A stretch of 19,658 bases of DNA from UHGV virus genome UHGV-0171543, one strand, 5' to 3'. The translations under genes were made by a program, and so were the position numbers. Shown one piece after another: positions 3,700 through 18,065 of the stretch. Under the pieces are notes generated by a model. That model made no database searches and was not told the origin of the DNA. It saw only the letters and a program-made list of their open reading frames with translations. Within the stretch, counting starts at the first letter, position 1. Each line of letters begins with the position of its first letter. This DNA comes from a virus.

Positions 3700-3891
3700 T
3701 TATTTTTTATGCCTGTAACCCCATTCTTCCAGCAACCTTGCGGCGTACCACCCAAGAAACAAAGGAAAGAACATTACAATGAGATATTCCCCGCCACGGT
3801 CAATGTTCGAAATTGACCAGATTACGATGTAGCCGGTGCAGGACAGGAATATTACAAACCCCAAAAAGCTACTTCGTCGACTCATGCTCAC
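3700..3891 (-). CDS. Small hypothetical membrane protein (two predicted TM helices)
   Basis: 63-aa ORF with hydrophobic stretches FLGFVIFLSCTGYIVIW and IVMFFPLFLGWYAARLL. Overlaps the next gene by 4 nt. Confidence 0.45.
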   Translation of the reverse strand: MSMSRRSSFLGFVIFLSCTGYIVIWSISNIDRGGEYLIVMFFPLFLGWYAARLLEEWGYRHKK

Positions 3892-4208
3892 TCCTTCACT
3901 TTGATTCCAGCAGCGCGGATGTTTTCCTCATAAGCATCCATTGCATCACCGAAGCCATTGGAATAATCAACAGTAAACCCTTTGGCTAATGCTTCTCTGC
4001 TGTCGATAAACTTTGGCGCGGTTATTTCAATAGCTGCTCGCGATGCCTGCCACGTTTGCCAGTGGCCTTGAACATCGTCCATCACGTATTGACCACCAAT
4101 ATTACCGCTGCCAATTTCATGGTGATTTTCAGGGTAACGGATAAGGTCTGAGTATTCGCCTCCACGTCGCAACCAACTTTCTTCAAACTGCTTTCTTGAT
4201 TCGTCCAT
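3888..4208 (-). CDS. Hypothetical protein
   Basis: 106-aa acidic ORF with no motif I recognise. Embedded in the operon between the helicase and ninB. Confidence 0.5.
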   Translation of the reverse strand: MDESRKQFEESWLRRGGEYSDLIRYPENHHEIGSGNIGGQYVMDDVQGHWQTWQASRAAIEITAPKFIDSREALAKGFTVDYSNGFGDAMDAYEENIRAAGIKVKE

Positions 4209-7708: not shown

Positions 7709-8425
<717 letters not shown>

Positions 8426-13252: not shown

Positions 13253-13960
13253 ATGGATTTGAATAAATTCGATGAGCCATTCAGCCCTGAAGATATCGAA
13301 TGGCGAATACAGCAAAGCGGTAAAACACGCGATGGCAAAGTGTGGGCTATGGTGCTGGCTTATGTCACGAACCGGGCAATCATGAAACGCCTGGACGATG
13401 TTTGCGGCAAAGCAGGATGGCGCAATGAATACCGCGATATTCCCAACAACGGCGGCGTTGAATGCGGCATATCAATCAGGATTGATTCCGAATGGGTAAC
13501 CAAATGGGATGCTGCTGAAAACACGCAGGTAGAAGCCGTCAAAGGTGGTCGTTCCGGTGCAATGAAGCGCGCTGCCGTTCAGTGGGGAATCGGTCGGTAT
13601 CTGTATAACCTTGAGGAAGGTTTCGCACAAACATCTCTCGATAAAAAGCAGGGATGGCACAGGGCAAAACTCAAGGATGGAACAGGATTTTACTGGCTCC
13701 CTCCATCGCTGCCGGGATGGGCAATCCCAACATCAGATAACAAACCATCACCAGAAAATACCAACCAGAAATCTCCATCGGTTGACTGCGAACAAATCCT
13801 GAAAGACTTCAGCGATTATGCGTCAACAGAAACTGACAAGAAAAAACTCATCGAGCGTTATCAGCGTGACTGGCAATTAATGGCTGGTAACGAGGAGGCG
13901 CAGGCTAAATGCGTTCAGGTAATGAACATCAGAGTTAACGAACTAAAACAGGCGGCATAA
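13253..13960 (+). CDS. Rad52-family single-strand annealing protein (Sak-like core) with Erf-like C-terminal tail
   Basis: 235-aa ORF with GAGGTGA RBS. Rad52/Sak-type motif GGVECGISIRIDSEW...AVKGGRSGAMKRAAVQWGIGRYLYNLEE. The C-terminal segment ETDKKKLIERYQRDWQL...CVQVMNIRVNELKQAA resembles the P22 Erf C-terminus as recalled. Confidence 0.8.
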   Translation: MDLNKFDEPFSPEDIEWRIQQSGKTRDGKVWAMVLAYVTNRAIMKRLDDVCGKAGWRNEYRDIPNNGGVECGISIRIDSEWVTKWDAAENTQVEAVKGGRSGAMKRAAVQWGIGRYLYNLEEGFAQTSLDKKQGWHRAKLKDGTGFYWLPPSLPGWAIPTSDNKPSPENTNQKSPSVDCEQILKDFSDYASTETDKKKLIERYQRDWQLMAGNEEAQAKCVQVMNIRVNELKQAA

Positions 13961-14434
13961 ATGGGAAGTAGAGGCGTAAATAAGGTGATCATTATTGGTC
14001 GCCTTGGGCATGATCCAGAAATCAGATATTCACCATCAGGAACGGCATTTGCAAACCTTACAGTTGCTACGTCAGAACAATGGCGTGATAAGCAAACTGG
14101 AGAGCAAAAGGAGCAGACGGAGTGGCACCGCGTGGTAATGAGCGGGAAACTGGCAGAAATTGCCAGCGAATATCTGCGAAAAGGCTCTGAGGTTTATCTT
14201 GAAGGCAAATTGCGGACAAGAAAATGGCAGGATCAAAGCGGACAGGATCGGTTCACTACCGAAGTTATCGTGGGCGTTGGTGGAACCATGCAAATGCTTG
14301 GTGGCAAGCAAGGAGGAAATGAACAGTCTTCACCTCAGCGAAATAACGGTCAGCAACAAAGACAGCAACCTCAGCAGCAAGGGAATCACAGCGAACCACC
14401 TATGAACTTCGACGATTCGGATATTCCGTTCTAG
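13961..14434 (+). CDS. ssb: Single-stranded DNA-binding protein
   Basis: 157-aa ORF starting at the ATG immediately after the annealing-protein stop. OB-fold-like N-terminal region, Gly/Gln-rich linker, acidic C-terminal tail DDSDIPF. Confidence 0.9.
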
Positions 14435-14936: not shown

Positions 14937-15230
14937 ATGCCAGCGCCTCTGTATGGTGCGGACGACGCGCGCCGCTGTTCCGGCAATTCCGTATCGGAGG
15001 TGCTGGATAAATTCAGAAAAAACTACGATCGGATAATGTCGCTACCGCAGGAAACGAAAGAGGAAAAGGAATTTCGCCACTGTATATGGCTTGCAGAGAA
15101 AGAAGAACGCGAGCGAATTTACCAGACATCAATCCGACCATTCCGCAAAGCCACATATACCCACTTCCCTGAAATTGACCCGCGCCTGCGTAATTACCGC
15201 TCACGCTATGGTGCTATCAGTAATGACTGA
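14937..15230 (+). CDS. Hypothetical protein
   Basis: 97-aa ORF with GGAGAAAA upstream, in the same operon. No recognised motif. Confidence 0.5.
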
Positions 15231-15403
15231 GGAATTTACCATGAGAGGACTTGCATACAATCCCGGCATTCTTCCGGCAGAAATGATTATTCGCCAACGC
15301 GTAAAGCCAATGCCATCGAGAGAGGAATTGCTTAAGAGAAATTCTTTTCCATCAGTGAATCAAACAAATATCTGAATACGATGTGGCGCAAAGGAGGCAA
15401 CCA

Positions 15404-15964
15404 GTGAGTGTAACGGTTGAAAAGATTGATGTGTTGTCATTCGTTATAACCGGTGCAGAGAGACTAGATCCGGTTCGAGTGATGATTGAAAACTACGAAC
15501 CTGGAAAGGGAAGAATCACCATCACCTGCTACGGAAAAGCGTGGACTGCGGCTTGGTTTGCTATGGGCGGTGATGATGTGCAGACGTTCATTAAGCGAGT
15601 CAGCAACGATTATCTAATCGACAATTTCGACCCTCAACTGCTAAGCACGGTCGACGATGACAACGATGCAAATCTGCTTTTCGTGAAGTCAGAAATCATA
15701 AAGTTACGAAGAGAGAGAGAAATAGACGTCGTACTGGCTCGCGAAATGTGGGACGAGGCGGAAAACGCCGATGACGTAAAAGAAAGCTGCTGCTGTTTCG
15801 GCGTCGGTAACAAACTACTGAATCTCTTTGGTGATGATCCGTGGTATGCCAACTGGCCAACGATACCAAACCCGAAATACCAGTATCTGGAACGCGTACT
15901 TAATGCAGTGAGAGACGGTCTTAAGCAAATAGATGCAGGAGAGCAAAGCGATGAAAAACCGTAA
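15404..15964 (+). CDS. Hypothetical protein
   Basis: Start taken as GTG 15404, preceded by AAGGAGG at 15391..15397 (the ORF track uses an upstream GTG at 15383). About 186 aa, acidic. No recognised motif. Confidence 0.55.
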   Translation: MSVTVEKIDVLSFVITGAERLDPVRVMIENYEPGKGRITITCYGKAWTAAWFAMGGDDVQTFIKRVSNDYLIDNFDPQLLSTVDDDNDANLLFVKSEIIKLRREREIDVVLAREMWDEAENADDVKESCCCFGVGNKLLNLFGDDPWYANWPTIPNPKYQYLERVLNAVRDGLKQIDAGEQSDEKP

Positions 15965-16127
15965 GGCAAAACGACTTTTTTTACAGCGACCTGTGCGTGT
16001 GGTGGAGCTGGTTATTAGCAACCATAAGATAGCGGTACTCCATCCATTTGGTCAGGTGGCTTTTGCCGCAAAGCGTAAGCCTACTGCGTCACAGAACAGG
16101 CGGAAGAAAGGGTACGCTGTAAGATGA
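15951..16127 (+). CDS. Small basic protein, paralog 1 (MKNRKAK... family)
   Basis: ATG at 15951 preceded by AGGAGA, giving 58 aa (MKNRKAKRLFLQRPVRVVELVISNHKIAV...). Its stop overlaps the start of the next paralog. Confidence 0.4.
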   Translation: MKNRKAKRLFLQRPVRVVELVISNHKIAVLHPFGQVAFAAKRKPTASQNRRKKGYAVR

Positions 16128-16315
16128 AAAACCGTAAAGCAAAGATGCTTATTTCCCGTGTATACAGACGTTGCTATCCCAGCCAATGGTTGAGGGTTAG
16201 CAATCGCCGTGTGGTGTTGTTTTCATTTTCTGGAATTGCCAGAGAGGGAGTCAAAGATAAGCGTAGCGCGGCGCAAAACCGCTGGAAAAACCACTTGTGC
16301 ACTAAAGGAGCGTGA
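16124..16315 (+). CDS. Small basic protein, paralog 2 (MKNRKAK... family)
   Basis: 63-aa ORF beginning with the same MKNRKAK heptapeptide as the upstream ORF; both are rich in Arg/Lys. Tandem arrangement. Confidence 0.4.
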   Translation: MKNRKAKMLISRVYRRCYPSQWLRVSNRRVVLFSFSGIAREGVKDKRSAAQNRWKNHLCTKGA

Positions 16316-16316
16316 T

Positions 16317-16832
16317 ATGGCGTTAACACACCGCGAACTCTGTCAGATTGCGTACAAGTTCCTTAAGCGCAACGGGTTCAAGGTTTGTTTTCATGACCGC
16401 TTTATAGCTGTAACCAGTACCGGAGAACAGCCAGATGCTATGGGATTCAGAAATTCAGCATCATGCCTGATAGAGGCGAAGTGTTCTCGTGCTGACTTGT
16501 TGGCAGATAGAAAAAAGCGTTTCCGTAAAAATCCGTCTCTTGGAATGGGCGACTGGCGATTCTTTATTAGTGAGCCGGGAATTATTTCAATTGAGGATTT
16601 ACCTCCCGGCTGGGGATTACTTCACGTTGTTAACGGAAGAGTACGGAAAGTACATGGATGGCCCAAGGGGAATTGCTGTTGGGGTAACCCTGAAGATAAA
16701 CCTTTTATTGGGAATAAGCAGGTTGAATGCGATTACATGTTATCTGCATTAAGGCGCATGGAGTTGAGAGGGCACCTTAATGAAATATATGACGGTGTAA
16801 TTGTTAATAAGAAAGAAGGAAACGCGGCATGA
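16317..16832 (+). CDS. Hypothetical protein with PD-(D/E)xK-like motif (possible nuclease fold)
   Basis: Start taken as ATG 16317, preceded by AAGGAG (the ORF track starts at 16209, inside the upstream paralog). 171 aa. The segment QPDAMGF...CLIEAKCSRAD has the D...E-x-K spacing typical of PD-(D/E)xK nucleases. Confidence 0.5.
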   Translation: MALTHRELCQIAYKFLKRNGFKVCFHDRFIAVTSTGEQPDAMGFRNSASCLIEAKCSRADLLADRKKRFRKNPSLGMGDWRFFISEPGIISIEDLPPGWGLLHVVNGRVRKVHGWPKGNCCWGNPEDKPFIGNKQVECDYMLSALRRMELRGHLNEIYDGVIVNKKEGNAA

Positions 16833-17761
16833 TCACTATTACCAAAGAGTTCACCAAAGAGCAGTTGATTGAGCAGGCTAAGAAGAATATTGAGGTTCTT
16901 CGCGTTGCGGTGGAAAGAGTCCCAGGCGCTTATGATGCGGCGGTTATTCATCTCAAGCTGGCTGAAATTACGCTGGCATCGCTGGAAGCAGAGCCTGTTC
17001 TGTATCAGTCCTGCACACGCCCCACCTGGAATAGCGGAGTTCCGTGGACGGAATGGAAAGAACGTAGTCGTGAGGGCTACGAAGACGATTTGCGCTTTAC
17101 AGACACGCCTGACCATGCCGGTTGGATAAACAAATGTCGAAAACTATATACCACTCCGCCAGCACCGATAGCGTTAGAGGCCATTGAAAACGCAATTGAA
17201 TATATCCGCAGTATCGCTTTTCACATCGATGAAGACGATTACCACGGCAAGCATATTGCGTATTTCATGCGACAAGCACTGGTCTGGCTGGAAGGGCATT
17301 CATGCAGCAACGACAGACAGGGTAAAGCCGAGAATCAACCAGTACGCGGCAACCAGACTGCCGAATCCAATCGCGGTAATGAGTGGACCGGCAATCCTGA
17401 TATTGATAACGCCATCATCATGCTCGATCGCATAGATACGCTGGAAAGTTGCGATGATGACCGTATTGAGGCGGTTAAGGCTGTTTTGCGTAGACTGGCT
17501 GGCAACTATCCGGTAACTCCGGATGGTTGGATAAGCTGTAGTGAGCGAATGCCAGAAATGGGAGAGCGACAATGCTATGTGTTAGCAGCTGACTTTAAAA
17601 ACAACTACCCACCAAACATCCCCAACACTCAGGTCGGCGTATATGGCGACTGGTTTAATGATGGCAATCCCACTTGGGATGACGGTGATGGCGAAGACCT
17701 GTATCTCAAAGAGGTAACCCACTGGATGCCGCTACCGGAACCGCCACAGGAGGTGAAATGA
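16829..17761 (+). CDS. Hypothetical prophage early-region protein (C-terminal region resembles the DUF551-type domain)
   Basis: 310-aa ORF translationally coupled to the upstream gene. The acidic, Trp/Pro-rich C-terminus (VTHWMPLPEPP) resembles DUF551-type prophage proteins; this assignment is from memory only. Confidence 0.5.
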   Translation: MITITKEFTKEQLIEQAKKNIEVLRVAVERVPGAYDAAVIHLKLAEITLASLEAEPVLYQSCTRPTWNSGVPWTEWKERSREGYEDDLRFTDTPDHAGWINKCRKLYTTPPAPIALEAIENAIEYIRSIAFHIDEDDYHGKHIAYFMRQALVWLEGHSCSNDRQGKAENQPVRGNQTAESNRGNEWTGNPDIDNAIIMLDRIDTLESCDDDRIEAVKAVLRRLAGNYPVTPDGWISCSERMPEMGERQCYVLAADFKNNYPPNIPNTQVGVYGDWFNDGNPTWDDGDGEDLYLKEVTHWMPLPEPPQEVK

Positions 17762-17822: not shown

Positions 17823-18065
17823 ATGTTCTCTCTGATTCAACGTGGTCAGATATACACCGATAGCGCTGGCTATCCAGTAAAAATCATTCGTAGTACTGAT
17901 CACTCAGTGTTCTTCAAGAGGATGGATGGCTATCCTGGAAGGGTGTGCATCAGAAAATTCAATAATTTATTCGAACACATTGATCACAGAGAATATCACC
18001 AGATCCTGGCTGAAACAGAACAGGAGAACCATCTGAAAAAATTACGTGCCATGCAAAGGAGATAA
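17823..18065 (+). CDS. Hypothetical protein
   Basis: 80-aa ORF in the same orientation. No recognised motif. Confidence 0.45.
   Translation: MFSLIQRGQIYTDSAGYPVKIIRSTDHSVFFKRMDGYPGRVCIRKFNNLFEHIDHREYHQILAETEQENHLKKLRAMQRR

Follow-up and report, generated by a model that had tools for sequence, protein, structure and literature searches.

[quoted passage not shown] The proteins encoded there (Orf60a, Orf61, Orf63, Orf73, Ea8.5 and Orf55) are similar in size to the two described here, and their genes occupy the same operon position. However, we detected no sequence or fold relationship between the two groups and, unlike the exo-xis genes, the family studied here forms arrays of paralogs and is far more basic. 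This family is catalogued as phrog_1380 ("unknown function"), is uncharacterized and is often mis-annotated. Its named relatives are phiV10 gp51, HK225 gp054, TL-2011b gp16 and Sergei gp88, and in 933W and VT2-Sakai an unannotated phrog_1380 ORF follows ea22, ahead of the next gene. A full-text literature search returned no paper mentioning MKNRKAK, the N-terminus of our two proteins, or phrog_1380, and no expression, binding or phenotype data for the family; reviews of the exo-xis region do not mention the gene. The mosaicism of lambdoid phages has been attributed in the literature to relaxed homologous recombination by Rad52-like enzymes, which in temperate phages promote exchange at short or diverged homologies (PMC2327257, PMC3945230).

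The window analyzed here is the whole 19,658-nt stretch of the virus genome UHGV-0171543. It is a lambdoid prophage whose best DNA matches are mEp235, Sf6, HK022 and phiv205-1, and its relevant features are the following (core types are introduced below).

7712-8425, plus strand, cI-type repressor
13253-13960, plus strand, Rad52-like Erf recombinase
13961-14434, plus strand, SSB
14937-15230, plus strand, Abc2 (anti-RecBCD)
15383-15964, plus strand, 193-aa protein (phrog_3451, not of the phrog_1380 family)
15951-16127, plus strand, ORF1, 58 aa, core type A (ATG 15951, TGA 16125-16127)
16124-16315, plus strand, ORF2, 63 aa, core type B (ATG 16124, TGA 16313-16315)
16317-16832, plus strand, 171-aa protein (phrog_631/phrog_9263) with a PD...(E)xK-like motif
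16829-17761, plus strand, DUF551 protein
17823-18065, plus strand, DUF4222 protein
from 18744, plus strand, integrase

The ORF pair is thus located between the recombination genes (erf, ssb and abc2) and xis/int, on the same strand, and this gene order places it in the accessory stretch of the pL operon, the counterpart of the lambda exo-xis region. The genes flanking the pair are on the same strand and their stops and starts abut or overlap, as expected for co-transcription; neither promoter-like sites above chance nor terminator-like sites were found between 14900 and 17000. From this position, the pair is predicted to be expressed from pL as delayed-early genes.

Three other features of the window deserve mention. 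The 193-aa gene has a weak PADLOC match to a type II restriction enzyme model (E 0.0032, residues 66-122), which is probably not meaningful. The 171-aa gene carries the motif EQPDAMGF ... CLIEAKC and weakly matches phrog_5429, a PHROG annotated as DNA repair protein (E 0.003); it is without a Pfam match, and its product may be an uncharacterized nuclease. Adjacent tRNA-Thr(tgt) and tRNA-Asn(gtt) genes are present on the minus strand (1034-1189), by gene order presumably at the Q/late-promoter end of the rightward operon, where tRNA genes are common in lambdoid and Stx-type phages.

The original prediction drew attention to two adjacent, Arg/Lys-rich ORFs of 58 and 63 aa that both begin with MKNRKAK, the stop of the first overlapping the start of the second, and all of this is borne out. 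The overlap is an ATGA at 16124-16127 that combines the ORF2 start with the ORF1 stop. Lys and Arg account for 16 of 58 residues in ORF1 and 17 of 63 in ORF2; each protein has a net charge of +15, with a pI of 12.0 for ORF1 and 11.7 for ORF2. Their paralogy was also correctly proposed: the two proteins are identical at 23 of 56 positions by BLASTP (41%, E 5e-6), and both match the 62-position profile of phrog_1380 (ORF1 with E 6.5e-23 over profile positions 1-60, ORF2 with E 1.2e-32 over positions 1-61). The likeness evidently extends past the shared heptapeptide, and chance cannot explain it. They differ in their C-terminal tails, which are of an "internal" type in ORF1 (ending ...TASQNRRKKGYAVR before the stop) and of a "terminal" type in ORF2 (ending ...SAAQNRWKNHLCTKGA before the stop).

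ORF1 overlaps the end of the upstream 193-aa gene by its first 14 nt and is preceded by a Shine-Dalgarno sequence, AGGAG (15937-15941, plus strand), 9 nt 5' of its ATG. An in-frame ATG further upstream, at 15933, is ACG in RCS47, L117 (one of the sampled loci) and HEMP4, so the conserved start of ORF1 is the one at 15951. The ORF1 protein is 100% identical to a database protein (P0058), and its variants are 81-97% identical with a constant length of 58 aa; homologs of ORF2 are 85-97% identical.

A profile search of 1.84e9 representative proteins recovered 45 family clusters (50% identity) at E <= 0.001. With the exception of a small number of fusions and a single spurious repeat protein, they have a length of 56-80 aa and three motifs in common: M-(K/N)-N-R-K-A-(K/R)-x-L, (R/K)-(I/V)-S-N-(R/H)-(R/K) and (S/T)-A-(A/S)-Q-N-R-(W/R)-K. 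ORF1 and ORF2 each contain all three and both fall within the length of about 58-65 aa, and in profile match, length, motifs and genomic setting we see no material difference between the window pair and the other phrog_1380 members. The family is found in other prophages, with many divergent variants. By tblastn, it was detected in 146 of 50,697 phage records, all enterobacterial, which comprise Stx, lambdoid, phiV10-like, Sashavirus and P1-like phages and one virulent phage of the Vequintavirinae (Av-05). Matches are present in 655 of 5,426 complete E. coli genomes (~12%), at 445 chromosomal and 334 plasmid places, and cover at least 80% of the pair in 136 genomes. A scan of genome contigs with a back-translated AQNRWKNH pattern gave 25 chance matches in unrelated metagenome-assembled genomes (L128-L152) and no family member; the lack of a species-representative genome with an exact AQNRWKNH member fits a narrow, phage-borne distribution.

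Annotation of these genes is inconsistent. Every one of the phage records found by tblastn that annotates the gene calls it "hypothetical protein". In RefSeq, the 933W homolog (3763-3951; L155 1264-1452) is unannotated and partly covered by an over-extended neighboring gene, and the second copy in TL-2011b (L002 2701-2892) is unannotated. For VT2-Sakai, the annotation (orf8, 156 aa) gives the gene a long N-terminal extension that is spurious. In three database proteins (P0007, P0017 and P0002), too, the sequence reaches upstream of the MKNRKAK start, and in P0007 and P0017 this extension is the tail of the preceding copy in another frame. Five others (P0090, P0097, P0101, P0092 and P0104) are frameshifted or deletion-fused, with a core that runs into the alternative tail frame or the downstream gene, and phrog_9263 and phrog_12350 appear to be built on fused versions of the family. 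Such forms may reflect decay in some prophages, or errors of sequencing or annotation. The longer family-containing proteins P0102 and P0103 had no match in a Pfam scan.

Such inconsistent annotation, which includes the unannotated TL-2011b and 933W copies, and the very short length of the ORFs are what could be said for a non-coding region, with a regulatory RNA or chance ORFs. However, the frames are conserved across deep divergence. The layout of a 58-aa ORF, an ATGA overlap and a 62-63-aa ORF is found with intact frames in TL-2011b (96% DNA identity), in RCS47 and P1-like phage-plasmids (84%) and in HEMP4 (66%), where about half of the residues of the proteins are in common with the window. 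It is also kept in 36 pairs and one triple from IMG/VR, and the frames persist in related phages where the cores are only 36-55% identical. Both ORFs are called by NCBI PGAP in E. coli FDAARGOS_1059.

The substitution pattern points the same way. Between alleles of the ORF2 type (B) and the HK225 type (E), synonymous sites are saturated (pS 0.88) while pN is 0.26, and the ten-codon segment encoding SAAQNRWKNH has six synonymous and no nonsynonymous changes, so the gene ends are conserved as protein and not only as DNA. Within core types (64 unique alleles, grouped by type), we counted 102 synonymous and 88 nonsynonymous polymorphisms, giving a pN/pS of 0.23 (binomial p 1.4e-22), with values of 0.21 for type A (ORF1) and 0.36 for type B (ORF2). 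An Rfam scan of the window gave no match in the region, its only hits being the two tRNAs elsewhere, and the three junctions show no RNA structure when folded (z-scores -0.42, +0.54 and +2.11). These patterns indicate that ORF1 and ORF2 are genuine coding genes under selection; a non-coding origin is effectively refuted by the substitution pattern, and we give it a negligible probability. The description of the family as "diversifying" is right in that it has many divergent core types. It does not extend to positive selection, which we looked for in the B-E and A-B comparisons and in the within-type polymorphism: dN/dS is 0.2-0.6, below 1 in every comparison, and gives no sign of it.

Scanning IMG/VR with a sequence pattern gave 120 loci; from these and the annotated phages, we analyzed 115 arrays. 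These comprise 78 single genes, 36 pairs and one triple; tandem arrangement, originally described as unusual, is therefore common in the family (37 of the 115 sampled loci). The central 35-40 residues of the proteins sort into about eight core types, represented as follows.

Core A: window ORF1
Core A': first copy of HEMP4
Core B: window ORF2
Core C: 933W and Sakai
Core C': first copy in loci L080 and L099
Core D: second copy of HEMP4
Core E: HK225
Core F: single copy of L077 and second copy of L097

The window pair is an A-B combination, and the cores occur in the arrays in these numbers.

Single-copy arrays: C 28, C' 16, E 13, B 13, F 4, D 3
Two-copy arrays: A-C 23, A-B 3, A'-D 3, A'-B 3, C'-B 2, C-B 1, A'-F 1
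Three-copy array: A-C-B 1

Within a core type, DNA identity is 93-100%. Synonymous sites between A and B cores are saturated (pS 0.73), which argues that the pair is an assembly of old paralogs and not the product of a recent duplication. The proposed tandem duplication thus holds as far as the paralogy of the two genes is concerned, while a simple or recent duplication is contradicted by this divergence and by the recombined cores elsewhere. As the same cores are found in other combinations and copy numbers, the pair appears to have been assembled by recombination between old, diverged members of the family.

The C-terminal tails follow another rule. An internal tail, ...QNRR(K/E)KG-x-AVR, whose stop overlaps the next ATG, is present in 38 of 38 internal copies, and a terminal tail, ...QNRWKNH(LRTKGE), in 111 of 115 last copies; the ORF2 tail differs from the latter consensus in two residues (LCTKGA in place of LRTKGE). 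C and C' cores are seen with either tail (loci L018, L080, L099 and L117), and one A' core (P0057) carries the terminal tail. Across these arrays, the tail is evidently set by the position of the copy in the array and not by its core type.

A and A' cores are nearly always found in the first copy and almost never alone, while B to F cores often stand alone. This bias and the ATGA overlap of two small genes would suit a toxin-antitoxin-like or toxic small-protein module in which the upstream A-type copy neutralizes or modulates the downstream copy, and the helix-strand-strand-strand-helix order, as predicted (see below), would resemble the topology of HicA toxins. However, the partners are paralogous instead of belonging to different toxin and antitoxin families, 78 of the 115 arrays have a single gene, the A' core with a terminal tail exists, and no Pfam, NCBIfam or PADLOC match supports such a module, which we regard as very improbable.

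The position-dependent tails coincide with stretches of conserved DNA at the gene ends, two of which are located in the window as follows.

16086-16150, plus strand, internal junction: conserved 3' end of copy 1, ATGA (16124-16127) and conserved 5' end of copy 2
16304-16310, plus strand, AAAGGAG within the last ORF2 codons: Shine-Dalgarno sequence of the next gene (ATG 16317-16319)

The head junction around the ORF1 start, gcaggagagcaaaRcgATGAAAAACCGTAARGCAAAR, is the same in RCS47, Sakai, HEMP4, L117, L080 and L024. The internal junction of the window has 83-98% DNA identity to arrays in which the flanking cores are only 36-55% identical, and head, internal junction and tail together have 83-100% identity to arrays with cores of 36-55% identity. 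No RNA structure was detected at the internal junction (folding z +0.54), which is likely a site of both termination-reinitiation coupling and homologous crossover. Its ATGA overlap would couple the translation of ORF1 and ORF2. At the other end of the pair, the tail codons ACT AAA GGA G form a Shine-Dalgarno sequence for whichever gene comes next, and the same terminal tail precedes at least five unrelated downstream genes. The RNA of the tail region (16304-16319) has less structure than its shuffled controls (z +2.11). Internal copies have substitutions for W54 and H57 of the terminal tail, so the conservation of this tail may partly reflect the embedded translation signals and not a function of the protein.

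These observations suggest how the arrays may arise. The dependence of the tail on position and not on core type points to homologous exchange at the conserved gene ends, which we infer to be the simplest mechanism. The 50-75 nt or so of near-identical sequence at each gene end would serve as built-in homology for phage recombinases, through which cores could be exchanged, stacked (one to three copies) or lost. The tail of each copy would then be dictated by what comes next: an internal copy would end in ...QNRRKKGYAVR and run through the ATGA overlap into the next copy, and the last copy would end in ...QNRWKNHLRTKGE, which contains the AAAGGAG Shine-Dalgarno sequence of the next gene. The window itself encodes the Rad52-like Erf recombinase 2 kb upstream of the pair. 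The arrays resemble the module exchange of lambdoid phages by Red or Rad52-like enzymes in having near-identical short flanks around unrelated cores. They differ in where this homology is placed, namely within the coding ends of a small gene that is repeated, so that exchange alters the copy number and creates position-specific tails.

Given these signals, the ORFs might act mainly in cis, as coupling cistrons that pass ribosomes on and supply homology for module exchange, with the peptide of minor importance. The tails do encode the translation signals of the next gene in perfect correlation with position, the junction RNA is unstructured and the downstream genes are diverse. In contrast, a cis role leaves several properties of the proteins unexplained: the N-terminal, central-turn and C-terminal-helix motifs persist despite saturated synonymous sites (B versus E), purifying selection acts over the whole length including the cores, the length is constant at about 60 aa, and the family is also found in a different setting in the unrelated virulent phage Av-05. 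A purely cis-acting part is therefore quite improbable.

The genes around the family vary on both sides. Downstream of the arrays we found genes for a 69-aa Cys-rich protein, the 171-aa protein, a 72-aa membrane protein, an HNH endonuclease, an ead/Ea22-like protein or a DUF551 protein; the upstream gene varies too (in HK225 it is annotated as EaE-like), and there is no fixed partner gene. A Pfam scan of the alternative neighbors gave no match. In HK225 (L005), Sergei (L006) and TL-2011b (L002), the family is found in the rightward early operon, behind replication genes or ParB, and not in the pL region, which suggests that the cassette moves between two early accessory regions. In two loci (L153 1339-1515 and L007 1217-1372), the first MKNRKAK copy is directly preceded by another kind of small, very basic ORF (MRVACI...RRAAKRRRRAKR, 51-58 aa), which also overlaps it by ATGA. 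In the window, the head DNA encodes the ...DAGEQSDEKP end of the 193-aa gene. Different upstream genes, the MRVACI ORF in one case and the 193-aa gene in the other, thus use different reading frames of the conserved head DNA.

The proteins themselves are orphans in fold and function as judged from empty homology and fold searches. Pfam, NCBIfam and PADLOC scans of both ORFs returned nothing usable, and a Pfam scan of 31 aligned family members gave no match even at E <= 10. A profile search of PDB sequences yielded nothing below E 0.39, the value of a match to Nucleolar protein 16 that we rejected, and Foldseek found nothing below E 0.68 in the PDB and only the family itself in BFVD. For ORF2, AlphaFold2 predicts, with moderate confidence (pLDDT 76.4, pTM 0.47), a helix (residues 4-16), three strands (20-24, 29-34 and 39-44) and a second helix (49-62); the pLDDT was 63 in a run with 18 sequences and 76 with the 31-sequence alignment. 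The invariant residues (K, R, N, Q and S) are found in the first helix, in the turn that joins strands 1 and 2 and where helix 2 begins. The strands vary in sequence but keep their hydrophobic pattern. In every core type, the net charge is +12 to +16 and the pI 11.3-12.0.

The original prediction suggested a nucleic-acid-binding or regulatory role, and from this charge and the conserved polar residues we infer that the proteins most likely bind nucleic acid. Their three conserved patches of polar or basic residues (MKNRKAK-L, the S-N-(R/H)-(R/K) turn and (S/T)A(A/S)QNR-K) on a poorly conserved scaffold would bind RNA or DNA and thereby modulate some process of the host or the phage early in infection or induction. 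The order of secondary structure, as predicted, would recall that of double-stranded RNA-binding domains (dsRBDs) and HicA domains, which are of similar size. In dsRBDs, RNA is contacted by the first helix, by the loop that follows strand 1 and by the beginning of the second helix, and the three conserved patches of the family would lie at the corresponding positions. Neither fold was accepted, with no Foldseek match in the PDB below E 0.68 and no Pfam match to dsrm or HicA_toxin; moreover, S-N is followed by Arg in most members, and the conserved catalytic His of HicA is lacking. Similarly, SQNRRKK resembles the WFQNRRMK of homeodomain helix 3, and a homeodomain-like recognition helix was rejected since the predicted core has three strands and is not a three-helix bundle, again with no Pfam match.

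The high positive charge is also compatible with binding to an acidic protein or a membrane. The proteins could inhibit or redirect an acidic host factor, or a component of a defense system or a rival phage, with the cores as target specificities. The accessory early-left location beside abc2 (anti-RecBCD) and the many core types on a fixed frame, with stacked copies, are in keeping with a protein target, and models of the exo-xis region propose host-protein targets such as RNA polymerase (PMC8614690). However, the conserved residues form charged or polar patches while the variable part looks like a buried scaffold, positive selection is absent (dN/dS 0.2-0.6), and there is neither a PADLOC match nor likeness to any known anti-defense protein; we consider a protein target unlikely.

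Returning to nucleic-acid binding, we put the probability that the pair consists of real, coupled genes, is exchanged as cassettes and encodes nucleic-acid-binding proteins at roughly 0.5; coupled genes and cassette exchange are the well supported parts of this statement and nucleic-acid binding is the weak one. The arrays could in addition be a means of diversifying specificity through recombination. In such a scheme, the hypervariable cores would recognize different targets (variant nucleic acids, or a component of host or rival-phage defense), the conserved ends would be the crossover sites at which cores are swapped or stacked, and the leading A-type protein would act only with its downstream partner, for example as a heterodimer. 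We regard this proposal as rather unlikely.

The pair belongs among the small accessory genes of the lambdoid early-left region, and the cassette arrays with position-dependent tails are its most notable feature. The arrays offer a compact and analyzable case of phage mosaicism inside coding sequence. Shiga-toxin phages, 933W and VT2-Sakai among them, carry the family directly after ea22, and the region around ea22 influences the lysis-lysogeny decision and prophage induction. Because annotations there often miss the gene or extend it wrongly, it may have been disturbed unnoticed in genetic studies of the exo-xis region. If binding to nucleic acid or to a host factor proves true, the family would represent a new small fold among early phage effectors.
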